NCBI GenBank assembly: GCA_963707915.1
Contig: OY970178.1
Location: 1,632,001 to 1,696,000, forward strand
DNA length: 64,000 bases
Reading direction: 5' to 3'
Source of the DNA: Candidatus Eiseniibacteriota bacterium
GTDB taxonomy: Bacteria > Eisenbacteria > RBG-16-71-46
Below are positions 10,630 through 33,197 of the stretch, in pieces. Every line of letters begins with the position of its first letter. Within the stretch, counting starts at the first letter, position 1. The position numbers and the translations under genes are program-made. The notes beneath the pieces were generated by a model. The model saw only the letters and a list, made by a program, of their open reading frames with translations, was not told the origin of the DNA and made no database searches.

Positions 10630-10635
10630 CCTCGC

Positions 10636-10685: not shown

Positions 10686-10704
10686 CGCCCGTGCGCTGCT
10701 CAGC

Positions 10705-13287: not shown

Positions 13288-13628
13288 CGGTTCTCCATGT
13301 GTCCGGAGTCACCGAGGGGGCGCACCGGGGTGGTATCGGAGTCTACCCGGGGCCGCCAAACGACGCCTCGGGGGCGAGGTCCTTCGCTGTGCTCAATGAT
13401 ATCGGCTGGTCACGCCCGCCGTCCAGCGGTTCCGGCACTGCCGGCCCGTTCCTCTCCCATACCCGTGCGATTCAGCGGACTCAGGTGCGGACCGCCACGC
13501 TGACTGCAATGCCCGTGCAAAGCGCATGGCCGCGGCGCGCTCCCGCCCCGGGAATACGCCCCCGTCCCCGGCGTACCCGGTGCAGCAAGCGCAGCAGCGC
13601 AGCGGGACCCAACCGGAGGAGGAGAGCC

Positions 13629-14585: not shown

Positions 14586-14696
14586 GGCGTCCGCGCCCGA
14601 CGGCGCCGTGCAGGAGCGGCCCGCCTCGTGGGAGGCGGGCCGCTCGCGCGTGCGCCCGGCACGGAAGGCCGCGCGCGGACGCGACCTCGCGACCGG

Positions 14697-15707
14697 CTAC
14701 CTCATGCCGAACGCGTGGGCGACGTACCAGCTGGCGGCCGCGATGACCGCGGCGATGGGCATGGTGAGGACCCAGGCCCAGACGATCCGGCCGGCCACCC
14801 CCCATTTCACGGCGGAGAGCCGCTGGGTCGAGCTCACCCCGACCCCGACGATCGCTCCCGTGATGGTGTGGGTGGTCGAGACCGGGATGCCGGCGGCGCT
14901 GGCCGCGAAGAGCGAGAGGGCGCCCGCGGTCTCGGCGCAGAACCCCCCCACCGGCTGCAGCCGCGTGATGCTCATGCCCATCGTCTTCACGATGCGCCAT
15001 CCGCCCGAGAGCGTCCCCAGCGCGATGGCGCCGTAGCTCGCGACGATGACCCAGAACGGCATGTGGAACGCCCCGGTGAGGTGCCCGGTCGAGTAGAGCA
15101 GCGCCGTGATGATGCCCGCGGTCTTCTGCGCGTCGTTCGAGCCGTGCCCCAGGCTGAAGGCCGCCGCGGAGACGAGCTGCAGGCGCCGGAACAGCCCGTC
15201 CACGCGGTGGGGCGTGGAGCGGTGGAAGAGCCACAGGACCACGAACATGCTGAGGAAGCCGAGCACCAGGCCGAGGACCGGCGAGATCACGATGAAGAGG
15301 GCGATCTTCACCACCCCGCCCACGATGATCGCGCCGGGGCCGTGGGCCACGAGCGCGGCGCCGACGAAGCCGCCGATCAGGGCGTGCGAGGAGGAGGTCG
15401 GCAGCCCCAGCCACCAGGTCACCAGGTTCCACACCACCGCGGCGACCAGCGCGGCCAGCACCAGCGACGGCGTCACCACCGAGGGGTCGACGGTGCCCTT
15501 GGCGATGGTCTTCGCCACGTGGTGCACCGGGAACACGACGAACGCGGCGAAGTTGAAGAACGCCGCCCACACCACCGCCCAGTGCGGCGGCAGCACCCGC
15601 GTGCTGACCACCGTGGCGATGGAGTTGGCGGCGTCGTGGAAGCCGTTGCTGAAGTCGAAGGCCAGCGCGATCAGGATGATCAGGATGACGCCGAGTGGCA
15701 GGTGCAT
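14697..15707 (-). CDS. pit: PiT-family inorganic phosphate transporter (copy 2)
   Basis: NGFHDAANSIAT and HGSNDAQK signatures, LPTSSSH, PVSTTH. Confidence 0.95.
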   Translation of the reverse strand: MHLPLGVILIILIALAFDFSNGFHDAANSIATVVSTRVLPPHWAVVWAAFFNFAAFVVFPVHHVAKTIAKGTVDPSVVTPSLVLAALVAAVVWNLVTWWLGLPTSSSHALIGGFVGAALVAHGPGAIIVGGVVKIALFIVISPVLGLVLGFLSMFVVLWLFHRSTPHRVDGLFRRLQLVSAAAFSLGHGSNDAQKTAGIITALLYSTGHLTGAFHMPFWVIVASYGAIALGTLSGGWRIVKTMGMSITRLQPVGGFCAETAGALSLFAASAAGIPVSTTHTITGAIVGVGVSSTQRLSAVKWGVAGRIVWAWVLTMPIAAVIAAASWYVAHAFGMR

Positions 15708-15747
15708 CTTCAGCGGCCCCCCGCGCCGAGGGGTTCGATCCCGTCGG

Positions 15748-16755
15748 CTACTTCATGCCCAGCGCGTGCGCGACGAACCAGGACGCGGCCGCGATGATCG
15801 CCGCCGCCGGCATGGTCAGCACCCACGCCCAGACGATGCGACCGGCCACGCCCCACTTCACGGCCGAGAGCCGTCCGGTGGAGCTGACCCCCACGCCGAC
15901 GATCGCGCCGGTGATGGTGTGGGTGGTGGAGACCGGAATGCCCGCCGCGGTCGCGCCGAACAGCGTGAGCGCGCCGGCGGTCTCGGCGCAGAAGCCGCCC
16001 ACCGGCTTCAGCTTGGTGATGTTCATGCCCATGGTCTTGACGATGCGCCAGCCGCCGAACATCGTGCCCAGGGCGATCGCCCCGTGGCTGATGAGCACCA
16101 CCCACAGCGGCACGTGGAACTCGCCGTGGAGGTTCCCGGTCGAGTAGAGCAGGGCGGTGATGATGCCCATGGTCTTCTGGGCGTCGTTGCCGCCGTGGCC
16201 CAGGCTGTAGGCCGCCGCGGAGACGAGCTGCAGGCGCCGGAACAGGCCGTCCACCCGGCTCGGCGTGGTCCGGTGGAACGCCCACATGACGGCGATCATC
16301 GTCACGCACCCCGCCGCCAGCCCGATCAACGGGGCCAGCACGATGAACTGGACGATCTTCGCCAGGCCGCCGAGCATCACGGCCTGCGGCCCGACCGCGA
16401 CCACCGCCGCCCCGGCCAGCCCGCCGATGAGCGCGTGGGACGAGGACGTCGGCAGGCCCACCCACCAGGTGATCAGGTTCCAGATGAGCGCCCCCAGCAC
16501 CGCGGCGAGGATGATCGGCGGGGTCACGACCGCGGGGTCCACCACGCCCTTGCCGATGGTCTTCGCGACGTGGACGCCGAACACCAGGAACGCGGCGAAG
16601 TTGAAGAACGCCGCCCACGCCACCGCCGCGCGCGGCGACAGCACCCGCGTGCTCACCACCGTGGCGATGGAATTGGCGGCGTCGTGGAAGCCGTTGCTGA
16701 AATCGAAGGCCAGCGCGATCAGGATGATCGCGAGAACGTTCAGCGGCAGGTCCAT
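15748..16755 (-). CDS. pit: PiT-family inorganic phosphate transporter (copy 1)
   Basis: NGFHDAANSIAT and HGGNDAQK signatures; start MDLPL 2 bp after the DUF47 stop. Confidence 0.95.
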   Translation of the reverse strand: MDLPLNVLAIILIALAFDFSNGFHDAANSIATVVSTRVLSPRAAVAWAAFFNFAAFLVFGVHVAKTIGKGVVDPAVVTPPIILAAVLGALIWNLITWWVGLPTSSSHALIGGLAGAAVVAVGPQAVMLGGLAKIVQFIVLAPLIGLAAGCVTMIAVMWAFHRTTPSRVDGLFRRLQLVSAAAYSLGHGGNDAQKTMGIITALLYSTGNLHGEFHVPLWVVLISHGAIALGTMFGGWRIVKTMGMNITKLKPVGGFCAETAGALTLFGATAAGIPVSTTHTITGAIVGVGVSSTGRLSAVKWGVAGRIVWAWVLTMPAAAIIAAASWFVAHALGMK

Positions 16756-16757
16756 GC

Positions 16758-17372
16758 TCAGCGGCTCTTGAGGACGATCGACTCGATCACGTTGGCCACG
16801 TCCTCGCACTGGTCCGTGGCGTTCTCGAGCCGGCCGTAGATCTCCTTCCAGCGGATCACGTCGAGGAAGTCGTGCGACCCGTCGAACAGGTCCGCGACCG
16901 CCTGGCGCGAGAGGGCGTCGGCCTCGTTCTCCAGCCGGTTGATCTCGATGGTGAACGGCATCAGGCCCTTGAAGTCCTTCAGGTGTCCGACCGCCTGCTC
17001 GATCTGCACCCCGCACTCGGTCACGATGCGTGCGAGCTGTTTCGCCTGGGGCGTGGCCGCCGGGATCTTGAACAGGACGATGCGGCTGGAGATCCCCTCG
17101 ATCGCGTCGAGCACGTCGTCGAGCCCGCTGGCGAGGCCGTGGACGTCCTCGCGGTCGAGCGGCGTGATGAAGGTCCGGTTCAGGCGCTCGAACAGCTCGT
17201 GCGCCACCAGGTCACCCTGGTGCTCGACGTCCTTGAGGGCCCTGGCGCGGTCCTCGAGGTGGTCGAACTCCTGCACCATCTGGTTGAGCAGGTCGCCGCC
17301 CTGGCGCACCAGCACCGCCTGGCGCCGGAACAACTCGAAGAAGTTCTCGTCCTTGGGGAAGAGGGAAAACAT
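16758..17372 (-). CDS. DUF47 / PhoU-like phosphate transport regulator
   Basis: EHQGD, TFITPLDREDV, LENEAD, WKEIY..LE..TDQCEDVA; lies directly upstream of pit. Confidence 0.93.
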   Translation of the reverse strand: MFSLFPKDENFFELFRRQAVLVRQGGDLLNQMVQEFDHLEDRARALKDVEHQGDLVAHELFERLNRTFITPLDREDVHGLASGLDDVLDAIEGISSRIVLFKIPAATPQAKQLARIVTECGVQIEQAVGHLKDFKGLMPFTIEINRLENEADALSRQAVADLFDGSHDFLDVIRWKEIYGRLENATDQCEDVANVIESIVLKSR

Positions 17373-17533
17373 CGATGTCCTCGCGTGCGGGGAGTGGGTC
17401 CGTACCTACGGTGCCGCCGACACACCGCGGAACGGATATCACGGCCGGAGGGTTCCGGCAACCGGCCGGCGGTGCTACCCTGCGCGTCGTTCCGCGACGT
17501 GCGACCTGAGGATGGACCCTGGGGGAAACCGCC

Positions 17534-17968
17534 ATGAAATCGGGCTTGAACGATCTCGCGCTGCTGCTGCTCCGGCTGGGGCTGGGGGCCGTCATGTGGG
17601 CCCACGGGGCGCAGAAGCTCCTGGGCCTGTTCGGCGGCCACGGGCCGCAGGGGTTCGTCCGACTGGTCGGGACCCTCGGACTGCCGGCGTCGCTGGCCTG
17701 GCTGGTCATCGCCGTCGAGTTCTTCGGCGGCATCGCCATCGTCTTCGGGGTGCTCAGCCGCCTCGCCGCGCTCGGCTTCGCCGTCGAGATGGTGGTCGCC
17801 ATCGTCAAGGTGCACTGGGCGAACGGGTTCTTCATGGACGGCGGCGCCGCGGGCCACGGCGGAGGGTACGAGTACCCGTTGCTGCTGGCGGTCGTCGCCT
17901 TCGTCCTGCTGCTCACCGGCCCCGGCCGCTACGCCCTCTTCGGCAAGACGCAGAAGCTGCTGGCTTGA
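17534..17968 (+). CDS. DoxX family membrane protein
   Basis: LLLRLGLG..HGAQKL, EFFGG, GGYEY, GPGRYAL. Confidence 0.92.
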   Translation: MKSGLNDLALLLLRLGLGAVMWAHGAQKLLGLFGGHGPQGFVRLVGTLGLPASLAWLVIAVEFFGGIAIVFGVLSRLAALGFAVEMVVAIVKVHWANGFFMDGGAAGHGGGYEYPLLLAVVAFVLLLTGPGRYALFGKTQKLLA

Positions 17969-18002
17969 GGAGCGTCGGACCCGCGAGGGGCGCGGGCGGG
18001 AG

Positions 18003-19565
18003 CTAGGCCCGCCCCGCGCCCCCGGGCCCCGGCGCGGCGTCCGCGCGACGCCACTCGCCGCTGGGGTCGTCGAGGGTATAGCGGTCGTAGAACTCGCGCC
18101 CGCGCTTCGCGACGAAGTCCACGCCCTCGAGCAGCGCCTGGAACTCCTCCTCCCCCGTCACCGGGGAGAAGCAGATGCGCACCCAGCCGGGCTTCACGCC
18201 GATGTGCCCCTCCTCGAGCTGGTGCTTGATCGCGAGCGAGACCCGCGGATCGATGTGCAGCAGCTCGTGGCCGTACGGCCCGGCGCACATGCACCCGCCC
18301 CGGACCTGGATGCCGAAGAAGTCGTTGAGCAGGGCCGAGGCCAGGTTGTGGTGCAGTCCCTTGAAGATGAGCGAGACCACGCCGAGGCGCTCGGGCTCGA
18401 GGTTGCCCAGCACCTCGAGCCCGGGGTTCCTGGTCCACTCGGCCAGCGCGCGCCGCAGGTAGTCCTGCTCGATCCGCCGCATGCGCTCCGCGCCGATCGC
18501 GTGCTTGAGGTCGAAGGCGAGCCCGGCCTGGATGCTGCCCACGATGGGCGGGGTGCCGCCGGTCTCGCGGCGGAAGAAGTCGTGCAGGTAGATGTGCTCG
18601 GTCGGGGAGGTGTAGAGCACCGTGCCGCCGCCGGGCTCCGAGGGCACGCGGTTGGTGAAGAGCCGGCGGTTCGCGACCAGCAGGCCCGGCGTCCGGGGCC
18701 CGCCCAGGAACTTGTGGACCGAGAAGAACGCTGCGTCCTTCGCCGCCGCCTCGTCGGGCCGGCCGGTCGCGTCCACCGGGTGCAGGTCGATGTCCACGTA
18801 CGGCCCCGAGGCGGCGTAGTCGAAGAAGGCCAGCGCCCCGTGCGCGTGCAGCACCCGCGCGATCGCGGCCGTGTCGTTGAGGATGCCCGTGACGTTCGAG
18901 GCGGCCGAGAAGGTCCCGATCCTGAGCGCGCGGCCGGCGTGGGCCGCGAGCACCCGGTCGAGGTGCTCGAGGCTGACGCGCCCCTGCGCGTCGAAATCCA
19001 CGTAGACGTTCTCGGCGATGGTCTCGCGCCAGGTGATGTCGTTGCTGTGGTGCTCCATGTGGCTCCGGAACACCACCGGGCGCTCGTCCTCGGGGACGTG
19101 ACCGGAGAGCCGGTAACGGTCCTCGAGCTGGCAGGGGATGCGCAGCCCCAGGATGGCGATGAGCCGGTTGACCGCGCCGGTCGAGCCCGCACCCACCGGG
19201 ATGAGCACGTCGTCCGGCCCCGCGTGGAGGTAGCGCGCGATGCGGCGGAACGCGCCCTCGTAGTAGCGCGTCATGAGCCGTCCGGTGTGCGAGGACTCGG
19301 TGTGGGTGTTGGCCATGAAGGGCAGCACGCGCGCGGCCAGCTCGTCCTCGACGGCGCGGTGGAAGCGGCCCGAGGCGATGTAGTCGAAGTAGCGGAGCGG
19401 CTTCTCCCCCTCCGGTGTGGGGAACGTCGCGTCCACGCCGACCACGCCGCGGCGCAGATGCTCGAGGAAGGCGCGTTCCTCGGCCGCGTCGCGCGTCTCG
19501 ATCGCGCGCCGCGGCGTGTCGTCCTCGAGATCCACCAGCGGCGGGAAGGTGTGCTCGGCGGCCAT
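18003..19565 (-). CDS. Aminotransferase class V / cysteine desulfurase-like PLP enzyme
   Basis: YFDYIASG, EHHSN, SNVTG, DYAA, SVHKFLGG (PLP Lys), GGTP, RGGCMCA. Confidence 0.9.
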   Translation of the reverse strand: MAAEHTFPPLVDLEDDTPRRAIETRDAAEERAFLEHLRRGVVGVDATFPTPEGEKPLRYFDYIASGRFHRAVEDELAARVLPFMANTHTESSHTGRLMTRYYEGAFRRIARYLHAGPDDVLIPVGAGSTGAVNRLIAILGLRIPCQLEDRYRLSGHVPEDERPVVFRSHMEHHSNDITWRETIAENVYVDFDAQGRVSLEHLDRVLAAHAGRALRIGTFSAASNVTGILNDTAAIARVLHAHGALAFFDYAASGPYVDIDLHPVDATGRPDEAAAKDAAFFSVHKFLGGPRTPGLLVANRRLFTNRVPSEPGGGTVLYTSPTEHIYLHDFFRRETGGTPPIVGSIQAGLAFDLKHAIGAERMRRIEQDYLRRALAEWTRNPGLEVLGNLEPERLGVVSLIFKGLHHNLASALLNDFFGIQVRGGCMCAGPYGHELLHIDPRVSLAIKHQLEEGHIGVKPGWVRICFSPVTGEEEFQALLEGVDFVAKRGREFYDRYTLDDPSGEWRRADAAPGPGGAGRA

Positions 19566-19652: not shown

Positions 19653-20827
19653 ATGACCGCAGCCACGGAAGCCAGGACCATCGCCTTCTGCCAGGAGCTG
19701 GTGAGGATCGAGAGCCTCTCGGGCGGGGAACAGGCCGCGGCCGCGGCGGTCGAGCGCGAGATGCGCTCCCTCGGCTACGACGAGGTGCGCCGCGACGAGC
19801 TCGGCGGCGTGGTCGGCAAGCTGCGCGGGGCACGCGCCGCCGGCCCCGGCGCGGCGCCCGGCGCCCTGCTGTTCGACGCCCACCTGGACGTGGTCCCGGC
19901 CACCGAGCCGGGCAGCTGGCGCTTCCCGCCGTTCTCGGGCGAGCTGGCGGAGGGCCGCGTCTGGGGCCGGGGCGCGACCGACGTCAAGGGCTCGCTCGCG
20001 GCGCTGGTCCTGGGGCTGGGCACCCTGCCCCGCGCGGACTTCGCGGGCACCCTGCTGGTCTCGGCGAGCGTCGGCGAGGAGCGCATCGAGGGCCTGGCCC
20101 TGGGCCACGTGCTCGCCGCGCATCCCGCGCGCGCGGCGGTGATCTGCGAGCCGACCGGGCTGCGGCTGGGGCTCGGCCACCGCGGGCGCGCGAGCCTGGT
20201 GGTCGAGGCCACGGGCCGGGCCGCGCACACCTCGCGCGCCGAGAACGGCATCAACGCGGTCTACCGGCTGACCGAGGCCATCACCCGGGTCCGCGCCATG
20301 GCGCCCCGCGCCGACGAGCTGCTCGGGCGCGGCCACGCCGAGCTGGTCGAGGTCTCCTCGCTCCCCTACCCGGGCTCCGCGATGGTGCCCTACCACGCGA
20401 CTGCGCGCTTCGACCGGCGGCTGGTGCGCGGCGAGACCCGCGAGAGCGTGCTGGGCGAGATGGAGGCCGCGCTCGCCGGGCTCGAGGGCGTGAGCGTGCG
20501 CCTGCACCAGGGCACGCTCGGTGCTTCACCGGGCGCTCGTTCACGGTGGAGGCGTTCCATCCCGGCTGGGCGGTGGCGGCCGATGCGCCCCACGTGCGGC
20601 GGGCGCGCGAGGCGCTCGCCGGGGCCGGGCTGGCAGACGAGGTCTTCTACGCTCCGTACTCCACGAACGGGACCGCGACCGCGGGCCGCGCGGGTCTCCC
20701 CACGCTCATCTACGGCGCGGGCGACATCTCCGCCGCGCACGCGGTGGACGAGAGCATCGCCACCGACGAGCTGCTCGCCGCGTCCCGCGGCTACCAGGCG
20801 CTCGCGCGGGGCCTGGCCGCGGGCTGA
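19653..20827 (+). CDS. M20 family metallohydrolase, YgeY-like; frameshift near 20520
   Basis: DAHLDVV, GRGATDVKG, VGEE, ICEP, GHRG, GRAAHTS; continues in ORF 20546..20827 (YSTNG, YGAG..AHAVDE). Confidence 0.85.
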
Positions 20828-20926
20828 GCGGTCCGACGGCGGGACGCCTCCGGCGCGTGCCCGGCTCGAGTTCGACCCCGGGGGGCCCGTCGCCCGGGGC
20901 GGGCAGGGACGCGACCCGGCATGCGT

Positions 20927-20956
20927 GAGCGGGGCGTCCGCTCGGACGCCCCGCTC
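20927..20956. terminator. Hairpin between convergent genes (possible bidirectional terminator)
   Basis: Perfect 14-bp inverted repeat GAGCGGGGCGTCCG / CGGACGCCCCGCTC. Confidence 0.55.
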
Positions 20957-20984
20957 GTGCTCGTTGCTCCGCGATCTACTGCGG

Positions 20985-21941
20985 TTACTCGGCGCGCCCC
21001 AGCACCAGCGCGATCAGCGCCATGCGCAGCACGACGCCGTTGGCGGCCTCGATCCAGTAGCGGGCGTGACGCGTGCTGTCCACGTCGGCGGGCAGCTCGT
21101 CCATGCGCGGCAGCGAGTGCAGGACGATCGAGCCCGGCTTGGCCTTCTCGCGCATCATCGTGCGGGTGACCTGGTACTCGGGCGGCGTGAGGCCCTTCTT
21201 CGCGTCGGCCGCGTCGACGCGCGACTTGGTGTAGTCGGCCTGCACCACCGGCTCGATGTAGATCACGTCGGCCTTGTCGATGCACTCCGACGTGCTCTTC
21301 CACTCGTGGTAGCGCACGTTGCGGTCGGCCAGCTCCTGCTTGAACTCGGCCGTCGGCGCCATGTCCGGCGGGTAGACCACGTCGAGCTCCATGTCGAACG
21401 CCGTGGCGGCGTAGCCGATCGAGTGCATGGTGCGCATGCGGTGGTCGCCGACGCACAGCCAGCGCAGGCCGTCGAGCGTGCCCTTCTCGCGCCAGATCGT
21501 GTACAGGTCGGTGAGCACCTGCGTCGGGTGCTCGCCCCAGCCGTCGCCGCAGTTGATGATGGGCACCGAGGAGTGCTTCGCCGCCTCGGCCGGCGCGCCG
21601 AGCTGGAAGTGCCGCATCGCGATCACGTCGCCGTAGTACTCCAGCATGCGCACGGTGTCCTTGATCGACTCCTGGTAGAAGTCGCCGGCGCGCGTCATCT
21701 TGGCGTCGGAGAAGCCCAGGACGTGGCCGCCGAGGCGGTGCATCGCGGCCTCGGTGGACAGGCGGGTGCGGGTGCTGGGCTGGTAGAACGCGGTCAGCAG
21801 CGTCTTGTCGGCGCACAGGTCGGTGTTGCGGCGGTTGTGGGCGTGCGGCGCGAGCTTCTCGCACACCTCGAAGATGCGGGTGTAGTCGTCGCGCTCGAAA
21901 TCCTTGAGCGACAGGATGTCACGTCCGATGAAGCTCCTCAT
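20985..21941 (-). CDS. Aspartate carbamoyltransferase-like enzyme (pseudo-ATCase) with an altered acceptor pocket
   Basis: PyrB-like STRTRLS, MRH, HPTQ, HSLPR, but TRAGDFYQES and IEPVVQ replace the PyrB KKGE and MTRVQ motifs; own RBS (GAGGTG) and ATG. Confidence 0.85.
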   Translation of the reverse strand: MRSFIGRDILSLKDFERDDYTRIFEVCEKLAPHAHNRRNTDLCADKTLLTAFYQPSTRTRLSTEAAMHRLGGHVLGFSDAKMTRAGDFYQESIKDTVRMLEYYGDVIAMRHFQLGAPAEAAKHSSVPIINCGDGWGEHPTQVLTDLYTIWREKGTLDGLRWLCVGDHRMRTMHSIGYAATAFDMELDVVYPPDMAPTAEFKQELADRNVRYHEWKSTSECIDKADVIYIEPVVQADYTKSRVDAADAKKGLTPPEYQVTRTMMREKAKPGSIVLHSLPRMDELPADVDSTRHARYWIEAANGVVLRMALIALVLGRAE

Positions 21942-22012
21942 GGCACCTCTCCCAGGATGGTGGGTCTGATGACGGCCGGATCCAACGCCGGCCGTGGTTC
22001 CTGCTTCCTTCG

Positions 22013-23256
22013 CTACCCCTCGGGGAACAACGTGTCGAGCACGCCGGCGTCCGGCGGGATGAGCCGCGGCTCGCCGGCCGTCTTCATGGCCGAGGCCACG
22101 TCCTTGAGCCCGTTGCCGGTGATGAGCGCCACGACGCGCCAGGCCGGGTCCACCAGGCCCTGGCGCACGGCCTCCTTCAGCCCGGCCCAGCGCGGCGGCC
22201 GCCGCGGGCTCGGCGAACACGCCGGCGCCGCGCGCCACCTCGCCGATCGCGGCCAGGATCGCGGCGTCGCTCACCGTGACGCCGAAGCCGCCCGACTCGC
22301 GGATCGCCTTCACGGCCGCGTCGCCGTCGCGCGGCAGGCTCACCGAGATCGAGTCCGCCACGGTGTCGCCGGACACCGGCCGGATCACGCCGTCGCCGGC
22401 CGCGGCCTTGACGATCGCCGCGCTGCCCTCGGCCTGCACCGCCAGCAGCCGGGGCGTGCGCTCGATGAAGCCCAGGCGCTGGAACTCGACGAAGCCCTTC
22501 CAGACGCCCGAGAGGATGTTGCCGTCGCCGACCGGCACGACGACCAGGTCCGGCACCTGCCAGTCCAGCTGCTCGCAGAGCTCGAAGGAGACGGTCTTCT
22601 TGCCCTCGCGCGTGTACGGGTTGAATCCGGTGTTGCGGTTGTACCAGCCGAAACGGCGCGTGGCCTCGAGACAGAGATCGAAGGCCTGGTCGTAGGTGCC
22701 GTCCACCGCCAGCACCTCGGCACCGAAGGTCAGCAGCTGCGCGATCTTCGCGCGCGGCGCGGTCTTCGGCACGAAGATGCGCGTGCGGATGCCCGGCGCG
22801 GCGGCGAGCACCGCGGTCGCCGAGGCGGCGTTGCCGGTCGAGGCCCCGGTCACCAGCGTGCACCCGAGCTCCTGCGCGCGCTTGAGCGCGACCGAGCTGG
22901 CGCGACACTTGAACGAGGCGCTGGGATTGCGGCCGTCGTCCTTGAGCAGCAGCGGCCGGGCGAGCCCGAGCTCCCGCGCGAGCCGCGGCGCCTCGACCAG
23001 CGGCGTCCAGCCCACCGGCGGCCCGTCGAGCCGGGCGCTCACCGGCAGGAGCGGCAGGTAGCGCCAGATCGTGCGGTCGCCGCTCTTCGCGAGCGATTCG
23101 CGCGACCAGCTCTTCCTCACGACGTCGAGGTCGTACTCGACCAGCGTGTTCGCGCCGCAGTCCGGGCAGACGTAGCGGTCGTCGGCGACCGGCGCGAGCC
23201 GGCCGCAGGCGACGCAGCGCAGGCCGACCGCGTTGCCCCGGCCGCGGCCCGCTCAC
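22013..23256 (-). CDS. Threonine synthase-like fold-type II PLP enzyme with N-terminal Zn ribbon; frameshift near 22190 and probably near the start
   Basis: CVACG..CPDCG, IWRYLPLLP, GWTPL, NPSASFKCR, ASTGN, EGKKT, VPVGDG, AEPAAA; after the frameshift LITGNGLKD. Confidence 0.85.
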
Positions 23257-24204
23257 GCCACGATCCAGGTGCCCGACTTGCCTTCCAGCGCGGGCACGAG
23301 GTGCTGCGGGTCGGTGATCAGCGCCTGCTTGCCGCCCGACTCGAGGAACTCGATGATCGCCTCGATCTTGGGCTTCATGCTGCCCGGCGCGAAGTGGCCC
23401 TCGGCCAGGTACTTCTTCGCCTCGGCCAGGGTCATGCGGTCGATGTCCTTCTGGTCGGGCTTGCGGAAGTTGAGGCAGACCTTCTCGATCGCGGTCGAGA
23501 TGATGAGCAGGTCGGCCTTCAGGTCGCGCGCCAGCAGGCTGGTCGCGAGGTCCTTGTCGATCACGGCCGCCGCGCCCTTCAGGTGCCCCTTCTCGTCCTC
23601 GACCACCGGGATGCCGCCGCCGCCCACCGCGACCACCACGATGTCGTTCTCGAGCAGCCGGCGGATGGCCTCGAGCTCGATGATCGGCATCGGCTTCGGC
23701 GAGGCCACGACGCGGCGGAACCCGCGCCCGGCGTCCTCGACGATGTCCCACTTGTCCTTCTGCCGGTGCTCGTTCGCGGTCTTCTCGTCCATGAAGGAGC
23801 CGATCGGCTTCGACGGCTTCTTGAAGGACGGATCGTTGCGGTCCACCAGCACCTGCGTCACCACGGTGGCGACCACCGGGGGCCTGCGGCCAGTCCTTCA
23901 TCTCGTTGTACATCGCGCGCTGCACCTGGTAGCCGATCGCCCCCTGGGTGTCGGCACCGCACGAGTCGAGCGGCACCTGGTGCAGCTCGTGGGCCGCCAG
24001 CTCGCTGCGCCGCAGGATGAAGCCGACCTGCGGGCCGTTGCCGTGGGTCACGACGACGCGGTAGCCCGACTTGACCAGCCCCGCGATGTGCCGGCAGGTC
24101 TCCTCGACCGCGGCGTACTGGTCCTCCACCGACTTGTGCGACTCGTCCAGGATCAGCGAATTCCCGCCCACCGCGAGGATGGCGAGCTTCTTCTCGGTCG
24201 TCAT
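23253..24204 (-). CDS. arcC: Carbamate kinase; frameshift in a C-run near 23880
   Basis: AVGGNSL, THGNGPQVG, TQGAIGY, then PSKPIG, RRVVASP, GGGGIPV, AVIDKD, FAPGSMKPK. Confidence 0.93.
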
Positions 24205-24301
24205 GTTCCCCACTCCATCCGCGCCCGAGCGGGCGCGATCGTTCGTTGGTCAGGGACCGGGAGCCGCCCGCAGGCGGCTCCCGTCCACGGTCCGCCGGGC
24301 C

Positions 24302-25785
24302 CTAGAGGGTCTTGAGCACGCCCGTGCGCTCGTTGAACTGCTGGATGAGCCGGTCCCACTCCGCGACCTGGGCCCAGGTCTCGGTCCAGAAGTCGGGCTC
24401 CCACAGGGCGGCCAGCTCCTCGGAGGTCTTGCCCTGCTGCTCCACCCAGGTGAAGTACTTGAGGTTGTGGAGCCGCTTGCGGTCGTGGTAGCCGAGCTCC
24501 TGCAGGTAGTCGGTCCCGGCGCCCTCGAGGTAGCGGGCGAAGTCCTGGGCCGCGCGCTCGCGGGTGTACGGGCCCCGCTCGTCGCGCAGCTCCTGCGTGC
24601 GCGAGCGCGTACAGCGTCCATCGAGTCGGTGAGCGGGGTCGACCATGACGTCGCGCCCGTCCAGCTCGTAGTATCTTCGCCACCTTGATCGCCGCGATCA
24701 GGTTGCAGATGCCGGAGATCCCGACCAGCGGCAGGAGCTTGAGGAAGTCCTCCTTCAGGCCGCTGCGCGGCGAGGAACTTGATCGCCCTCCTCCTCGTTG
24801 AACAGCCGCAGGAGGCTCATGGCACTGCTCGTCGTCGATGGCCGCGACCATGTCGGTGTTGCGCACGTTGTGCACCCAGGGCACGTGCTTGTCGCCGATC
24901 CCCTCGATGCGGTGCGCGCCGAAGCCGTTCGAGAGCAGCGTCGGGCACTGCAGCGCCTCGGTCGCCACGACCTTCACGTGCGGGAACCGGGTGCGCAGGT
25001 AGTCGCCGGCCGCGATGGTGCCGGCCGAGCCCGTGGCCGAGATGTAGGCGGCCAGCCGGCTGTCCGGCTTGCGGATCTGGCCGAAGACCTCCTCGACGAT
25101 CGAGCCGGTCATGGTGTAGTGCCAGGCCGCGTTCCCGAACTCCTCGAACTGGTTGAAGATGGAGATCTTGTCGCCGCGCGTCTTCCGCAGCTCCCAGCAC
25201 TTGTCGTAGATCTCCTTGACGTTCGACTCGGTGCCCGGCGTCGCGATGATCTCGTCCGTGCCGATGGCGCGCAGCCACTCGAAGCGCTCCTTCGACATGC
25301 CCTCGGGCAGGATGGCGATGGCCTTGCAGCCGAGCAGCGCGCTGTCGAAGGCGCCGCCGCGGCAGTAGTTCCCGGTCGAGGGCCAGACCGCCTTGTGCAG
25401 CTCGGGGTCGAACTCGCCCGTGACCAGGCGCGGCACCAGGCAGCCGAAGGCGGCGCCGACCTTGTGGGCGCCGATCGGGAAGTGCTTGCCGACCAGCCCG
25501 ACGATGCGGGCCTTCACGCCGGTCAACTCGGACGGGAACTCGATCCAGTTGCCGCGGTTGAACAGGCCGCCCTTCTCCTTCGGCTCGTTCTTCCAGGTGA
25601 TGCGGAAGAGGTTGAGCGGGTCGACATCCTGCATGCCCGACCCCGGCCAGCCGCTTCTTGATCGGCTCCGGGACCCGGCTCGGGTCCTTCTGCTCGGCGA
25701 AGGTGGGGATGACGATCTTGCGCTCGCGGCAGCGCGCCACGGTCTTGGCGATGACGGCTTCGTCGATCTTCGGAGAGACCCGCAT
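24302..25785 (-). CDS. Fold-type II PLP-dependent enzyme (cysteine synthase-like); several frameshifts
   Basis: AAAAGGAG RBS; MRVSPK..IPTFAEQKDP, PLNLFRITWKNEP, GAHKVGA, WPSTGNYCRGG, TGSAGT, HRIEGIGDKH, GISGICN, HNLKYFTWVEQQG spread over several frames. Confidence 0.8.
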
Positions 25786-25946
25786 CCAATGGCTCCTTTT
25801 CGGCGGAGTTTTCGGGTTTCGGAGGGACCAAGGACAATAGCCGAGGCCGCTGCCGCAGGGCAAACGCGGGGACCGCACAAGTCCTTGACGTCGCATGGCC
25901 GAGGGGCGCGGGCCCGTCCCCCCGCGCGGAGGTCGGGGACGCCGGT

Positions 25947-25976
25947 TTGAACGCGGACCCGCGCAACGGGTACGAT
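25947..25976 (+). promoter_or_regulatory. Possible sigma-70 promoter for the ygeW-like operon
   Basis: TTGAAC-N18-TACGAT in the divergent intergenic region. Confidence 0.4.
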
Positions 25977-26119
25977 GCGCGGCCGACTTCCTGACGGTGG
26001 CCGTCAGCGGCTTGTTTCTCCCTCGAGCGCGGCGGCCACGACGATGCCATCCGCCATTCCGAGGCGCCGGCCGGGACCTTCGAGGGGTCCGCCGGCTCCC
26101 GCACCCAGAAGGAGCCTGC

Positions 26120-27265
26120 ATGAGCCCCGTGACCTCCCTCCCGCCGGTCCCCGACCGCGCCGCGCTCGACGCCCTCTTCGGCCGCAGCATGCTGCTGACG
26201 CGCGACTGGACCACGCCCGAGCTCGAGACCCTGATGGCGGTGATCGGTCGTTTCGCCGGGCTCGACTACGCCGGCAAGTCCACCGCGCTGTTCAAGGACG
26301 AGCTGGGCTGGGCCCTGTTCTTCGACCAGTCCACCCGCACCAAGTCGGCCTGGGCCGGCGCCTGCGCACGCCTCGGCCTGGACCCGGTCATCGTCGACGG
26401 CAGCAGCACGCAGGTCTCGCACGGCGAGACCGCGGTCGAGACCGGCGCGATGCTGGGGATGAACGCCCACGCCCTGGGCGTGCGGCACGATCTCATCATC
26501 GGCGAGGGCAACCGCTTCATGCGCGACGTCAAGCAGGGCATCGACGACTACCTCGCCGCGATCCGGGACCCGCGCCGGGTGCCGGTCGTGAACCTGCAGT
26601 GCGACATCGACCACCCCACGCAGACGATGGCCGACCTGATGTGGATGCGCGAGTGCAACCCCGGCGGCCTCAAGGGCAAGAAGATCGCCATCTCCTGGGC
26701 CTACTCGCCCTCGTACGCGAAGCCGCTCTCGGTGGCGCAGGGCTGCTCCATGCTCTTCACCCGCTTCGGCGCGGAGGTCGTCCTCGCCCATCCCCAGGGC
26801 TACCACCTGATGCCCGACACCATGGAATTCGCCGCGGCCAGCGCGAAGGCCTCGGGCGGCTCGTTCAAGGTGGTGAACTCGATGGACGAGGCCTTCCAGG
26901 GCGCCGACATCGTCTATCCCAAGTCGTGGGGCCCCTACGACCTCATGCTGGAGCGCGTCGCGGCCAACAAGGCGAAGGACAAGGCGCGGCTGGGCGAGAT
27001 CGAGAAGGCGGCGCTGGCGGGCAACGCGAAGCACAAGGACTGGATCTGCGACGAGCGGCGCATGGGACTCACCCGCGGCGGGAACGCGCTCTACATGCAC
27101 CCGCTGCCCGCGGACATCGGCGACGAGGTCTCGCACGGCGTGATGAAGCAGCACACCGTCAACGTCGCGCGCCAGGCCCAGTACAAGATGTACGCGATCA
27201 TGGCGCTGCTCTCGGTGGCGAAGGTCCCGAACCTCGCGCAGCGGCTGGAAGCCCTCGGGAAGTAG
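26120..27265 (+). CDS. ygeW: YgeW-like (knotted) carbamoyltransferase
   Basis: STRT, SHGET, LQCDIDHPTQ, WAYSPSYAKPLSV.QG, YPKSW, MHPLPADI; AAGGAG RBS. Confidence 0.82.
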   Translation: MSPVTSLPPVPDRAALDALFGRSMLLTRDWTTPELETLMAVIGRFAGLDYAGKSTALFKDELGWALFFDQSTRTKSAWAGACARLGLDPVIVDGSSTQVSHGETAVETGAMLGMNAHALGVRHDLIIGEGNRFMRDVKQGIDDYLAAIRDPRRVPVVNLQCDIDHPTQTMADLMWMRECNPGGLKGKKIAISWAYSPSYAKPLSVAQGCSMLFTRFGAEVVLAHPQGYHLMPDTMEFAAASAKASGGSFKVVNSMDEAFQGADIVYPKSWGPYDLMLERVAANKAKDKARLGEIEKAALAGNAKHKDWICDERRMGLTRGGNALYMHPLPADIGDEVSHGVMKQHTVNVARQAQYKMYAIMALLSVAKVPNLAQRLEALGK

Positions 27266-27269
27266 TCCC

Positions 27270-28838
27270 GTGAGCGAAGGCGACACGCGCGGCACGCTCG
27301 ACGCGAGCATCGCGTCGGCGGCCGCGCGTGACCTGCCGCTCGCCGCCGCCATCCTGCGGGAGGCCATCCGCATCCCCGCCGACCACGTGGACCGCCCACC
27401 CGGGGCACCCACCGAAGGTGGGTCCGGCGGCGACCCGCTGTGCGGCACCAGCAACCACGAGGGCCCGCGCCTCGACTACCTGCGGCGCGCCGTCCTCGAG
27501 TCCGGCGCGGTCGCGAGCGCGGACGACGTCGGATTCGACGCCTTCGGCAACCTCAACTGGGTGGTGGAGGACCGCGACGACGGCGTGCCCCACCGCGAGA
27601 AGCGCGTCATCTACCTCGACGGCCACGCCGACACGGTCCGGCCGATGCGCGCCCAGTGGCACGAGCGGACCGGCGGGCTCGACCCGTTCCTCGGGCTCAC
27701 GGACCCCGCGCGGCTCGACCGCGGCCGGCTGCGCCGGGAGCTCGGCTGGCTGCCGCCGGACGACGAGTGGGGGCACCTGGTCTTCGGCCGCGGCGCCGCG
27801 GACCAGCTCGGCGGCGTGGTGGCGCAGATCGTCGCCTCGCGCATCCTGCTCGAATTGAAGCCCGCCGGCGCGCTGCGGGGCGTGATCGTGCGCAGCTACG
27901 TCACGCCGGCGGAGGAGGACAACGAGGGTGGCGGGCCGCTCTTCCTGACGCGGCGCGTGTTCCCCGGCGCCCCGCCCGCCATGCTCCCGGACGTCGTCGT
28001 GCTCACCGAGATGACCGGCGACACGACCCGCGGCGCGCTCGTCGTCCGGCGCGGCCAGCGCGGCCGCATGGCGATCGAGGTCCGGGTCACCGGGCGTTCG
28101 TGCCACGGCTCGATCCCGCGCGAGGGCCTGAACCCGCTCGAGCACGGCGGCGCGATCCTCGCCGAGGCCGCCGCGCGGCACGCGAGCGGCGAGGGCTTCC
28201 TGCGCGATCCGCTGCTCGGAGCCGGCTCGCGCACCGCCACGTGGGCGGAGCTCGAGACGCCGAGCGACTGCTCCGTGCCCGAGCGCTTCCGCTTCCGGCT
28301 CGACCGACGCCTCACCACCGGCGAGTCCCCCGAGCAGGCGCTGCGGGACGTCGAGGGCCTCGAGAGCGTGGCGCGCGCGCGCGCCGCGGGACTCGCCGTC
28401 GAGGTCGCGGTGCCGGTCTACGACCAGCCCACCTGGCGCGGCTACGTGCCCGGGAACGCGCAGGTCTACGCCGCCTGGCAGACCCCCGAGGAGCACCCCG
28501 CCATCCAGGCGGCGCTGGCGACCTACCGTGCCGTGGTGACGCCGCATGTGGCCGCGGACGGCGAGGGCGGCGCGCTGCGCCGCGAGCCCCGGGTCGACCG
28601 CTGGGTGTTCTCGACCGACGGCGTGGGCTGGCCCGTGCCCGAGAGCGAGCGGGCCCTGGTCGTGCCGGACTCGAAGCGGTGGGTCTCCGCGGGCGGGCAG
28701 CGCCACCCGGGCATGTTCGGCATCGGTCCCGGGATCATGCAGAATGCGCACCAGGTCGGCGAGGTGCTGGACCTGCGCGAGTTGCAGCAGGCGATCGCGT
28801 TCCTGGCGCGCTACCCGAGCGTGTTCGCGACGCGGTAG
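27270..28838 (+). CDS. M20 family metallohydrolase, YgeY-like with insertions
   Basis: DGHADTV, GRGAADQLGG, AEEDNEG, LTE, RGQRGR, GRSCHGS, FSTDG, NAHQVGE; 4 bp after the ygeW-like gene. Confidence 0.88.
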   Translation: MSEGDTRGTLDASIASAAARDLPLAAAILREAIRIPADHVDRPPGAPTEGGSGGDPLCGTSNHEGPRLDYLRRAVLESGAVASADDVGFDAFGNLNWVVEDRDDGVPHREKRVIYLDGHADTVRPMRAQWHERTGGLDPFLGLTDPARLDRGRLRRELGWLPPDDEWGHLVFGRGAADQLGGVVAQIVASRILLELKPAGALRGVIVRSYVTPAEEDNEGGGPLFLTRRVFPGAPPAMLPDVVVLTEMTGDTTRGALVVRRGQRGRMAIEVRVTGRSCHGSIPREGLNPLEHGGAILAEAAARHASGEGFLRDPLLGAGSRTATWAELETPSDCSVPERFRFRLDRRLTTGESPEQALRDVEGLESVARARAAGLAVEVAVPVYDQPTWRGYVPGNAQVYAAWQTPEEHPAIQAALATYRAVVTPHVAADGEGGALRREPRVDRWVFSTDGVGWPVPESERALVVPDSKRWVSAGGQRHPGMFGIGPGIMQNAHQVGEVLDLRELQQAIAFLARYPSVFATR

Positions 28839-28896: not shown

Positions 28897-28989
28897 TGGA
28901 AGGTGGACGAGTACGGCCGGGCCGGTGGCGAACCGGGCGGCCGTCCCGTCCGGCGGCCGCTGCGCCGCCATCGTCACGGGGGGCACGAC

Positions 28990-30548
<1,559 letters not shown>

Positions 30549-30550
30549 GG

Positions 30551-32240
30551 TCAGGCCGCCTCGTCGAAGAGCACGAAGGAGTCGAGCGCCGGGGTGACGA
30601 GCTGCTTGCGGATCTCGAGGTCGAAGTGCGTCTCCTCGCGCGCCAGGTCGTCGGCCGCACTGCCGCCGACCGCGCGGACGAGCGCGCGCCCGGTGGTGGC
30701 GTGGAACAGCACCTCGACCGGCGAGCTGCCGCCCAGCCGGCTGCTCACCAGCGGGATGTTCTCCTTCTCGAGGAAGTCCCGGATGAACTGGGCGTTCTTG
30801 CGGGGCACTTCCGGGCTCAGCCCGACGCGCGCCAGCACGTGGGCGGCCCCGAAGGCCTTCGCCTCGAGGCGCCGGCGGTCCCCGCCCAGCTTGGCGATGT
30901 CGTTGATCAGCATCTCCATGGCGTTCACTCCGTAGCGGGTGGGCAGCTCGGCGTCGGCCAGTCCGTCGGGCAGCATGAAGTGGTTGATGCCCCCGATGCG
31001 CGCCACCGGATCGAAGAGGCAGGCGCAGACGCAGGAGCCCAGCACGGTGCGCAGCTCGACCGGCTCGGCGCTCGCCCGCACCCCGCCGATCGTGACGTGG
31101 ATGCGCGCGGACCGCGGCCCGGCCGCCACAGCGGCCGCGGCCCGCGCCGGTCCGACCCGCCGGCCGCTCGCCTCGGCCAGGGCGCGGCGCGTCCCGGGCG
31201 GCAGGTGGATGCGGCCCGCCCGCCCGGCGGGAGCGGGCACGGCGTCCGTCCCGGCCGCGCCGGCGCACTCCGCAGCGGTCGCGGGCGCGGGCCCGGCGGC
31301 CACGGCCGGGCCGCCCGCCGCGACCCGTCCGGTGCGCTCGGCCGCGCCGCGCAACCGGTAGATGGTGCCCCGCAGCGGCTCGAACACGTGCATGTGGGAC
31401 TGCAGGCTCTCCGAGTGCCCGAGGAACAGGTACCCGCCCTCCGCCAGCCGCTCGGCGAACGACTCGACGATCGTCTTCACCGTCTCCCGGTCGAAGTAGA
31501 TCAGGACGTTGCGGCAGAAGATGAGGTCGAACGGGCCGGGCACCCGCCACGGCTTCTCGATCAGGTTGAAGCGGCGGAAGGTGACCAGGTCGCGCAGCTC
31601 GCTCTTGACCCGCGCCATGCCGCCGTTCGCGCCCGAGCCGCGCTGGAAGAACCGCTTGCGCAACTCGGCCGGCACCGGCTGGAGGAGATCGATCGGGGTA
31701 GACCCCCTGCTGGGCACGCGCCAGCACCTGCGTGTCGAGATCGGTCGCGAGGATCTCGAAGCTCCACCCGGCCGGGTTCTCGAACCCCGAGAGCAGGGTC
31801 ATCGCCAGCGTGTAGGGCTCCTCGCCCGACGAGCAACCGGCGCTCCAGATGCGCAGTCGCCTCGGCCCGCCCCTCAGGCTGCGCTCGCGGAGCTCGGGGA
31901 AGACCCGGGTCCTCATGAAGTCGAAGTGGTGGGACTCGCGGAAGAAGTCGGTCTTGTTCGTGGTGATGCAGTTGAGCATCTCCCGCAGCTCGCTGCCGTC
32001 CGGGTCCTGCTTCGTCACCCGCTCGAAGTACTGCCGGTAGCTGTGCAGCCCCAGCGCGCGCAGGCGGCGGGCGAGACGCGAGGCCACCAGCTGCTTCTTC
32101 GAGTCGTTGAGCGTGATGCCCGCCTGCTCGAGGATCAGCTTCCGGAAGGCATGGAACTCGGCGTCGTTGATCGCGAAGCCGCCGGGAGGCGCGACCGATC
32201 CCCCGGCGTCGGACGCGTCAGAGGTGTCGTGTGCGGTCAT
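30551..32240 (-). CDS. cheR: CheR methyltransferase fused to CheD deamidase; frameshift in a C-run near 31700 within CheR
   Basis: TTNKTDFFRE, WSAGCSSGEEPY, FCRNVLIYFD, FLGHSESL, Ala-rich linker, then TVLGSCV..NHFMLP..EAKAFG with no stop between the domains. Confidence 0.85.
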
Positions 32241-32331
32241 CCGCGGTCTCCAGGACGGGGAAGCGCCTCCAGGCGACGGGCTGCGGCCGGCCGGGGACGC
32301 GCGGTCGTCGGGCCGCGCGCCCCCGCCGGTC

Positions 32332-33197
32332 TCAGTACTCCTCGAAGCCCTTCTCCCACTCGTTGCCACCCTGCGCCGGCGCCACGGCCTTCGCCACCGG
32401 TCCCGCCGCCGCGCGCTTCTCCGGCCGCCCGCCGCCCGCCTTCGCCGCCGTCCGCGCCACCGCCCCCTTGGTCCCCTGCCCGCCCAGCTTGAAGCGCGAC
32501 ACCAGCGTCTGCAGTTGCTCCGCCTGGCTCGCCAGCCCCTCCGCCGTCGCGTTCAGCTCCTCGGTCTGCGACGCGTTCGACTGCGTCACCTGGTCCATCT
32601 GCGTCACCGCCTTGTTCACCTGGTCGATCCCCGACGACTGCTCCCGGCTCGCCGCCGCGATCTCCGACACGATGTCCGTCACCCGCTTCACCGACGTCAC
32701 GATCTCGCTCAGCGTCTGTCCCGACTGGTTCACCAGCTCCGTCCCGCCCTCCACCTTCCGCACCGAGTCCTGGATCAGGTTCTTGATCTCCTTCGCCGAC
32801 GTCGCCGAGCGCTGCGCCAGGTTCCGCACCTCGGTCGCCACCACCGCGAACCCCCGCCCCTGCTCCCCCGCCCGCGCCGCTTCCACCGCCGCGTTCAGCG
32901 CCAGCAGGTTGGTCTGGAACGCGATCTCGTCGATCGTCCCGATGATGTCCGCGATCTGCTTCGACGACTGGTTGATCGCCGCCATCGCCTCCACCGCCGT
33001 GCTCACCACCCGCCCGCCCTTCTCCGCCACCTCCCGCGACCCGTTCGCCAGCTGGTTCGCCTGCTGCGCGTTGTCCGCGTTCTGCTTCACCGTCGAGGTG
33101 ATCTCCTCCAGGCTCGCCGCCGTCTCCTCCAGGCTCGACGCCTGCTCCTGCGCCCCCGACGAGATCTGCCCCGCCCCCGCGCTCAGCTGCTGCGAGG
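32332..33197 (-). repeat. Near-identical MCP signalling-domain DNA, copy A
   Basis: Matches 38222..39087 with only about 5 substitutions seen by eye; about 700 bp shared with 36481..37179. Confidence 0.92.

Follow-up and report, generated by a model that had tools for sequence, protein, structure and literature searches.

A cluster of seven genes encoding two carbamoyltransferases, one carbamate kinase, two M20 hydrolases and two fold-type II pyridoxal phosphate (PLP) enzymes is found in the genome of an uncultured Candidatus Eiseniibacteriota bacterium (assembly GCA_963707915.1). The window analysed is the whole 64,000-nucleotide stretch at positions 1632001-1696000 of contig OY970178.1, and the cluster occupies positions 19653 to 28838 of it. 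At the ~72% G+C of the window plain open reading frame (ORF) lists failed, and genes were therefore called by third-position GC scoring. Families were assigned by scanning the window genes with Pfam and NCBIfam profiles against curated cut-offs. All seven genes were confirmed where the initial annotation had placed them, and their families agree with the profiles (Table 1). Carbamate kinase is present in a single copy, so the initial statement of two genes per function is right for the transferases, M20 hydrolases and PLP enzymes only.

Table 1. Genes of the cluster, its flanking aminotransferase gene and related genes elsewhere in the genome. The first eight rows use window positions and the last four, which lie outside the window, use contig positions.
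Gene	Position	Strand	Profile match
M20a, YgeY-like M20 metallohydrolase	19653-20824	+	NF009555 224.1 bits (N part) + 63.3 bits (C part), two frames; frame break near 20478-20480
PyrB-like carbamoyltransferase (pseudo-ATCase), 318 residues, intact	20985-21941	-	TIGR00670 227.9 bits vs cut-off 236.95
ThrC-like fold-type II PLP enzyme, N-terminal zinc-ribbon-like stretch	~22013-23230	-	PALP 232.8 bits
Carbamate kinase (ArcC/YqeA type)	23253-24204	-	TIGR00746 264.7 bits (C part) + 90.7 bits (N part), split frame
Long CysK-like fold-type II PLP enzyme	~24302-25770, approximate	-	PALP 48.5 bits; cysK 92.6 bits vs cut-off 351
YgeW-type carbamoyltransferase, 381 residues, intact	26120-27265	+	NF005538 380.5 bits vs 453
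M20b, divergent YgeY-like M20 hydrolase, 522 residues, intact	27270-28838	+	NF009555 167.5 bits vs 321
AT5, SufS-like class V aminotransferase, flanks cluster	18003-19451	-	Pfam Aminotran_5 118 bits; SufS family 119.6 bits vs cut-off 475
SsnA-like gene	1764402-1765514		276.6 bits
XdhD-type molybdoenzyme (two ORFs)	~145.7-153 kb region, gene at 146.6 kb		TIGR03313 735 bits
Dihydropyrimidinase	737554-738915		594 bits
True YgeY-family hydrolase, stand-alone	759625-760827		424.6 bits, passes cut-off

The PyrB-like protein falls below the TIGR00670 cut-off, whereas the real PyrB of the genome scores 355.5 bits. Nine members of the PyrB-like family were aligned by MAFFT together with the PyrB of E. 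coli and that of the genome itself. The carbamoyl-phosphate residues and R167 are kept in the family (STRTR motif, R105, H134, Q137, R167 and HSLPR, in E. coli numbering), and the HSLP motif is present in every member compared. All nine members carry the substitutions S80R, K84Y, R229P and Q231V, whereas both true PyrBs keep Arg, Gln and Lys at positions 229, 231 and 84, the aspartate-binding residues of aspartate carbamoyltransferase (ATCase). S80R, K84Y and R229P are also found in 119 of 119 relatives from the protein database. Judged from the alignment, the PyrB-like protein retains the carbamoyl-phosphate site and has lost the residues for the aspartate side chain. In a tree of carbamoyltransferases (23 rows, with the reference enzymes thinly sampled) the family forms a single clade beside the two ATCases (support 100/99), and a search of solved structures matched ATCases only (best 1ml4 at 216.5 bits).

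The family is widespread. At least 575 loci encoding a PyrB-like protein were found in a scan of one genome per species, and the best 80 of these are 69-98% identical to the window protein, the closest being from Candidatus Eisenbacteria (96-98%). The phyla among these 80 also include Planctomycetota, Actinomycetota, Chloroflexota, Spirochaetota, Myxococcota and others, and across phyla the family is 70-77% identical. The protein database holds thousands of relatives, and every named one among the best 120 is called 'aspartate carbamoyltransferase', a family-wide label that is probably a systematic mis-annotation. Two of the loci carry unexpected titles. An 89% identical locus with 70% GC (L039) is titled Saccharimonadales and shares a contig with G041, placed in the window's order, and a 70% identical locus (L110) is titled uncultured archaeon; both titles look like binning or labelling oddities. 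Between the window and either G029 or G041 the PyrB-like proteins are 89-91% identical and the YgeW-like proteins only 66-69%, which suggests either transfer of the PyrB-like gene or a much stronger constraint on it.

The PyrB-like and ThrC-like proteins could be taken for the plain aspartate carbamoyltransferase and threonine synthase of the genome, as the public names have it for the first, and the ThrC-like orthologue in G004, a genome of the same genus, does exceed the TIGR00260 cut-off (206 vs 167.1 bits). That they are the only housekeeping copies was also a concern raised with the initial annotation. This identity is hardly credible, as it is contradicted by the replaced aspartate residues and by the presence elsewhere in the genome of a pyrB-pyrI-pyrD-pyrE-pyrC operon and of thrC (497.9 bits, PRK08197). 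Since this operon, argF (411 bits) and thrC all lie elsewhere, the PyrB-like and ThrC-like genes of the window are extra copies.

The other transferase is 48% identical to E. coli YgeW over 371 residues, and its gene starts with the ATG at 26120, preceded by a GAAGGAG stretch. It scores below both curated cut-offs for the family (NF005538, Table 1; TIGR03316, 360.7 vs 500 bits). In the 23-row tree it groups with E. coli YgeW, apart from the ornithine carbamoyltransferases (support 100/100), and a shorter YgeW relative that is found in other clusters, here called OTC2, joins the same clade (100/98). In sequence, the residues Q80, H84, K-P-x-S-V and S-W are common to the window protein and E. 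coli YgeW. M20b begins 4 bases past the YgeW-type stop codon, and it directly follows the YgeW-like gene in all six loci fetched from relatives.

Both M20 proteins lie below the cut-off of the YgeY family (NF009555/TIGR03526), and M20b carries three insertions. The H-x-D, G-R-G-x-x-D, E-E, T-E and C-terminal H motifs of both align with E. coli YgeY; these are the metal-ligand and catalytic Glu positions, after DapE and CPG2. M20a is a variable accessory gene within the genus. It is in a single frame in G001, G003 and G006, and it was not found beside the PyrB-like gene in G004, G005 and G007. The carbamate kinase gene of the window is split, and its intact G004 orthologue, 96% identical, exceeds the TIGR00746 cut-off (369.9 vs 358.25 bits).

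The CysK-like protein is ~480 residues long in relatives (480 in the intact G004 orthologue), with N- and C-terminal extensions of ~80 and ~100 residues. It is below the cysteine synthase cut-off (TIGR01139, 109 vs 350.95 bits) and matched cysteine synthases only in the search of solved structures (best 77 bits). The lysine that aligns with the SVKDR lysine of the genome's CysK is kept in all eight CysK-like members, while the Asn-loop differs. Its names in the protein atlas are generic ('putative cysteine synthase', 'PLP-dependent enzyme'). The ThrC-like protein is 38% identical to the product of the other thrC. Its intact G004 orthologue is above the TIGR00260 cut-off and below that of PRK08197 (293.4 vs 303 bits), and it scores only 46.9 bits on the DpaL profile NF006058 (cut-off 276). 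In other genera of the same family the second PLP gene is a distantly ThrC-like one, here called PALP2. CysK-like and ThrC-like (or PALP2) are two PLP subfamilies without characterised members.

Four of the seven cluster genes (M20a, ThrC-like, ArcC and CysK-like) are spread over two or more reading frames, a feature on which the initial annotation was silent. When the region is aligned with G004 (90.7% identity over 7956 bases), single extra bases of the window are left without a partner at 22191, 23884 and 25639, and a further seven lie between 24607 and 24822. The extra base at ~22191 moves the C-terminal 85 residues of the ThrC-like protein into another frame, the one at ~23884 breaks the ArcC frame, and those at 24607-24822 and 25639 fall in the CysK-like gene. 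The ThrC-like, ArcC and CysK-like orthologues are intact in G004. Short-read contigs of related organisms (relatives, 90-99% alike, and no sure guide to the frames, habitat or expression of this strain) lack one base at 23883 (runs X3 and X17), 24821 (X3) and 25636 (X2 and X3). The extra bases are missing from close relatives and from the short-read contigs, and frames are broken outside the cluster as well, which makes consensus errors of the assembly the most likely cause of the breaks. The ThrC-like frame has no visible start codon (23222-23252), and the window has 2-base insertions relative to G004 at 23233 and 23249; the junction between the ArcC stop and the ThrC start is unreliable in this assembly.

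Alternatively, the cluster may be decaying, the frameshifts in M20a, ThrC-like, ArcC and CysK-like being real and the pathway non-functional in this strain. Splits in four of seven genes, the variability of M20a within the genus and a search of sequencing runs that returned none holding this very strain (best share of words 0.22) would be in keeping with decay. However, the differences are all single extra bases missing from G004 and the short-read contigs, and genes of unrelated function, CheR and CheB downstream and the XdhD-type gene at 146.6 kb, are split likewise. Third-position GC also stays at 0.9-1.0 through the broken cluster genes, and the genome is a single contig with a completeness of 94.84%. 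Decay is thus quite improbable. Contigs from an RNA library of a ~93% identical relative cover the PyrB-like, ThrC-like-ArcC and YgeW-like genes, although DNA carry-over is possible.

The cluster genes are co-conserved in relatives, which removes one doubt that had been attached to the initial annotation. Of 61 related genomes, 29 have a YgeW-like gene, as do six of the seven other genomes of the genus. The PyrB-like gene is found in 11 of the 61, six of them from the same genus, and all 11 also have the YgeW-like gene. The two genes are on one contig within ~5 kb in this genome (G000), G003, G004, G005, G007, G029, G041 and G059, and ~10 kb apart in G001. In three genomes of other genera of the same family (G008, G021 and G053) the YgeW-like, M20b, CysK-like and PALP2 genes are located beside XdhD-type, SsnA-like (235-259 bits) and YgfK-N-like (382-418 bits) purine genes, all three being markers of the reductive urate pathway. 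The loci fetched from G008 and G021 include ArcC, and that from G053 does not.

Neighbours across phyla were counted, with 8-kb flanks, in those 42 of the best 80 PyrB-like loci with 6 kb or more on each side. A CysK-like gene is present in 34 of the 42, PALP2 or a ThrC-like gene (never both) in 33, a second transferase in 26 and ArcC in 24. At least one of Xdh, SsnA-like and luciferase-like genes is found in 32, an M20 hydrolase in two and DpaL in none. The gene directly upstream of the PyrB-like gene is PALP2 in 29 and ThrC-like in 15 of the best 80 loci. These neighbours, together with the purine genes in other genera, support the link to anaerobic purine catabolism that was proposed initially. 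The PyrB-like protein appeared as the only transferase in 16 of the 42 loci (15 of them without ArcC), as if ArcC went with the YgeW type only; this was rejected as an effect of the 8-kb flanks. In all four tested genomes whose locus showed no ArcC, arcC was matched at a distance of 9-11 kb from the PyrB-like gene, and in both extended loci an OTC2-type gene is near the PyrB-like gene, directly beside it in L118 and ~1.6 kb off in L117.

Variations in gene order and content are found among individual loci. In Fodinibacter luteus (L054) the order is 8-oxoguanine-deaminase-like, CysK-like, PALP2, SsnA-like, luciferase-like, PyrB-like, OTC2, ArcC, FAD subunit, Xdh and hydantoinase-type. The arrangement of the window recurs in Planctomycetota, where L043 has M20, YgeW, CysK-like, ArcC, ThrC-like and PyrB-like genes. 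A 57% GC genome of the same class (L034, G059:C2, positions 5421-18716) has PyrB-like, a short YgeW relative, ArcC, ThrC-like and CysK-like genes in one operon. This operon is divergent from a MobA-like gene and multi-subunit Xdh genes, and no M20 gene is nearby. In a related genus (L014, G019:C6, positions 1-12263) ArcC, YgeW-like and M20b stand beside genes of pyrimidine-catabolic type and not beside xdh or ssnA. The G019 locus hints that ureides from more than one source can be handled by the ArcC/YgeW-like/M20b module.

The reductive urate (2,8-dioxopurine) pathway was worked out in gut bacteria in 2025 (Li et al., PMC12507026; Liu et al., bioRxiv 10.1101/2025.04.24.650524). According to both reports, XdhD or XdhAC reduces urate to 2,8-dioxopurine, YgfK or UacX reduces the ring, and SsnA followed by HyuA opens the rings to give 2,3-diureidopropionate (PMC12507026; bioRxiv 10.1101/2025.04.24.650524). 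YgeW takes one ureido group of 2,3-diureidopropionate off with phosphate and YqeA makes ATP from the product (bioRxiv 10.1101/2025.04.24.650524). YgeY then hydrolyses the other ureido group to give 2,3-diaminopropionate, which YgeX converts to pyruvate; the YgeW plus carbamate kinase step and the YgeY hydrolysis were demonstrated with E. coli and C. sporogenes homologues (PMC12507026; bioRxiv 10.1101/2025.04.24.650524). The papers are at odds over the ureido group that YgeW takes off (PMC12507026; bioRxiv 10.1101/2025.04.24.650524), and a commentary names as open both the stereochemistry and which ureido group is cleaved first (PMC12990295). Li et al. mention clusters in Actinomycetota and Chloroflexota and an F420-type reductase, and they counted YgeW by PF00185 and YgeX by PF00291 (PMC12507026). 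Counting of this kind would not single out an additional transferase or PLP enzymes of an unusual type. The main text, in the portions available, makes no mention of either, and its supplementary neighbourhood tables may list a second transferase (PMC12507026). A literature search on diureidopropionate, or on dioxopurine with carbamoyltransferase, returned only the 2025 papers, one review and the commentary (PMC12990295).

Pseudo-ATCases were defined by Barba et al. in 2013 (PMC4016543). In the same paper a subgroup 1 enzyme, Rxyl_2847 (ureidoglycine carbamoyltransferase), phosphorolyses allantoate, which is a diureido acid, and a subgroup 2 gene in Nocardioides sp. JS614 adjoins a ygeW homologue, xdhABC and hyuA (PMC4016543). 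Since the pathway was solved in 2025 (PMC12507026; bioRxiv 10.1101/2025.04.24.650524) and pseudo-ATCases, one of them adjoining a ygeW homologue, were known in 2013 (PMC4016543), to call the cluster an undescribed branch, as was done at first, is too strong.

Genome profile and sequence searches gave no match to DpaL, hydantoinase, SsnA or Xdh inside positions 1632001-1696000, and in this the initial annotation was right. A search of the whole genome for xdh, ssnA, hyuA, ygfK and dpaL recovered an XdhD-type gene, an SsnA-like gene and a dihydropyrimidinase (Table 1), but neither DpaL (best 40.7 bits vs 276, NF006058) nor the N-terminal half of YgfK. The XdhD-type gene is 1.5 Mb from the cluster, in a region that resembles the E. 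coli xdhD region in layout. Its neighbours at 145700-153100 are a YgfM-like FAD subunit, a chlorohydrolase-type amidohydrolase, a MobA-like gene and YqeC. A full reductive pyrimidine-catabolic set is located at 735900-743900 (methylmalonate-semialdehyde dehydrogenase, dihydropyrimidinase, CN-hydrolase, aminotransferase, PreT-like and PreA-like), and the true YgeY-family gene is ~16 kb beyond it.

Taken with the neighbourhoods, these genes make it reasonably probable that the cluster is a hybrid form of the ureide-to-pyruvate lower half of the reductive urate pathway. The 2,3-diureidopropionate would be supplied from elsewhere in the cell, as the product of the XdhD-type, SsnA-like and hydantoinase-type enzymes. 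The YgeW-type transferase would pass one ureido group of this compound to phosphate, as E. coli YgeW does. The second ureido group, most likely that on C2 beside the carboxylate, would be either hydrolysed by the YgeY-like M20 enzymes or phosphorolysed by the PyrB-like enzyme. Because the parts of the PyrB-like site for carbamoyl phosphate and the alpha-carboxylate are kept and the side-chain pocket is new, the enzyme should act on an N-carbamoyl-alpha-amino acid other than carbamoyl-aspartate. Candidate substrates are the 2-ureido group of 2,3-diureidopropionate and 3-amino-2-ureidopropionate, and a 2-ureido substrate would fit by analogy with the allantoate reaction of pseudo-ATCase subgroup 1. 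The single carbamate kinase may convert the carbamoyl phosphate of one or both transferases to ATP.

Since loci with the PyrB-like gene mostly lack an M20 hydrolase, we take the PyrB-like enzyme to be a putative phosphorolytic substitute for YgeY, one that would double the carbamoyl phosphate reaching the kinase. The removal of two carbamoyl groups by phosphorolysis, suggested initially, fits the comparative data, in which few PyrB-like loci have an M20 gene and the YgeW-type and carbamate kinase genes are present or a few kb further on. Two M20 hydrolases remain here, and double phosphorolysis is therefore an option and not a necessity in this organism. The CysK-like and ThrC-like enzymes are in the position of DpaL/YgeX, and their presumed task is to form pyruvate and ammonia, either from 2,3-diaminopropionate or, by elimination, from a monoureido form. 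Each of the pair could deaminate diaminopropionate, eliminate from a monoureido acid or handle the D-isomer. The role of terminal lyases that the initial annotation gave them was inference and, as written, is unsupported.

Several points weigh against this assignment. The N-terminal half of YgfK is unmatched genome-wide, so there is no recognisable ring reductase of that type, and nothing in the genome matches the Fodinibacter luciferase-like protein with 60 bits or more; the sole reductase of this sort present is the PreA/PreT pyrimidine enzyme. The upstream pathway genes are dispersed, at distances of 100 kb to 1.5 Mb from the cluster. With two or three YgeY-like hydrolases still in place, a complete route is possible without the PyrB-like enzyme, and two PLP enzymes are more than a replacement of DpaL needs. 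The regiochemistry given here to the YgeW-type and PyrB-like enzymes is a guess from active-site likeness, and on this the papers disagree. The co-occurrence counts come from related genomes and are not independent, and the roles of the cluster enzymes and of the PyrB-like family were assigned from sequence and gene context. The frame breaks could also be real in this strain, given that no sequencing run holding it was found.

Some of these points would suit a different ureido acid. The PyrB-like enzyme and its neighbours might act on allantoate or ureidoglycine of oxidative urate breakdown, or on N-carbamoyl amino acids derived from pyrimidines or hydantoins, with the cluster uncoupled from the reductive urate route in this genus. 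The sole assayed pseudo-ATCase uses allantoate (PMC4016543), and in this genus the cluster is not beside xdh or ssnA, with no match in the genome to a YgfK-type or luciferase-type reductase. In G019 the ArcC, YgeW-like and M20b genes are beside an amidohydrolase, a CN-hydrolase, an aminotransferase and an aldehyde dehydrogenase, which are pyrimidine-catabolic genes. Nevertheless, we consider this unlikely. Across phyla the PyrB-like loci are mostly accompanied by XdhD-type, SsnA-like or reductase genes (32 of 42). Uricase and allantoinase were not among the neighbours in annotated loci, although no genome search was aimed at either, and the HSLP motif of the PyrB-like protein differs from the HPLA of the allantoate-active subgroup 1 (PMC4016543).

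It is very unlikely that the transferases work in the synthetic direction, making an albizziin-like ureido amino acid from diaminopropionate supplied by the CysK-like enzyme as an SbnA-like protein. The equilibrium of carbamoyltransferases does favour carbamoylation (PMC4016543), and the CysK-like protein weakly matches the SbnA family (38.5 vs 350 bits). Yet the constant neighbours are carbamate kinase and purine-catabolic genes, and no carbamoyl-phosphate synthetase, non-ribosomal peptide synthetase or export gene was seen in the annotated loci.

The genes that flank the cluster were also considered. AT5 adjoins the cluster in L013 (G004), L018 (G008) and L032 (G029) as well, with 74% identity to the G008 copy. 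It is a possible accessory gene; that it supplies sulfur or selenium to the molybdenum enzyme is a guess. A PHO4-family phosphate transporter gene and a PhoU_div (DUF47) gene are located at 15751-17405 on the minus strand, ~1 kb left of AT5, and a link to the phosphate-consuming transferases is possible. Directly downstream of the cluster, at 28977-32552 on the minus strand, there is a chemotaxis set consisting of CheR, a CheB-type receiver and methylesterase, and CheD.

How does the cluster, read as a lower half of the reductive urate pathway, compare with known systems? Like the E. coli ygeW-ygeX-ygeY-hyuA-yqeA set it has a YgeW-type transferase of the same clade, YgeY-like M20 hydrolases and a carbamate kinase, and relatives have XdhD-, SsnA- and YgfK-like neighbours. 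Unlike that set it has CysK-like and ThrC-like enzymes in place of DpaL/YgeX, an extra PyrB-like transferase, a divergent M20b with its three insertions, and no hyuA, ssnA or xdh in the cluster. The PyrB-like protein resembles the pseudo-ATCases of Barba et al. in having an ATCase-like fold that retains the carbamoyl-phosphate motifs and lacks the RxQ aspartate motif (PMC4016543). Its HSLP fits the H[ST]LP of subgroup 2 (positions 265-268), and the order PyrB-like, YgeW relative, FAD subunit, Xdh and hydantoinase-type in L054 (Fodinibacter) and L056 (a Nocardioides metagenome-assembled genome) is also like that of subgroup 2 (PMC4016543). At R230-Q232, where subgroup 2 has G-x-[SC], it reads P-V-V in the MAFFT alignment, the comparison being by listed motif and the loop alignment possibly differing from that of Barba et al. 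(PMC4016543). It is unlike subgroup 1, which acts on allantoate in an oxidative route and has the HPLA motif (PMC4016543).

Also close are the soil-type variants of Actinomycetota and Chloroflexota with an F420-type luciferase-like reductase, which share the PyrB-like protein (72-77% identical), the long CysK-like protein, carbamate kinase and a second YgeW-related transferase. They differ in having the short YgeW relative OTC2, PALP2 and not a ThrC-like gene, no M20, and xdh, ssnA and reductase genes in the cluster. The window mixes this soil-type set with an E. coli-type YgeW-YgeY pair. The pathway itself is known, and the new element is this hybrid composition in an uncultured sediment-type phylum.

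A broader proposal is put forward only tentatively, and we regard it as possible but doubtful. The PyrB-like enzyme may be a 2-ureido (N-carbamoyl-alpha-amino acid) phosphorylase that replaces YgeY in most soil and sediment lineages, doubling the ATP gained per urate, with both routes present in Eisenbacteria and some Planctomycetota. The CysK-like and ThrC-like/PALP2 enzymes would then be a new two-enzyme replacement of DpaL, perhaps eliminating urea or ammonia from D-configured intermediates. If this is true, the displacement pattern would settle that the ureido group removed by YgeW is the 3-ureido group, and a cell with both routes could choose between ATP yield and an irreversible pull. 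A very widespread and strongly conserved ATCase look-alike in the apparent place of YgeY makes a testable prediction on the cleavage order, the stereochemistry and the energy yield, two ATP per purine versus one. Why has either solution been kept? The hybrid window, in which the hydrolases and the second transferase occur together, is a natural place to ask.

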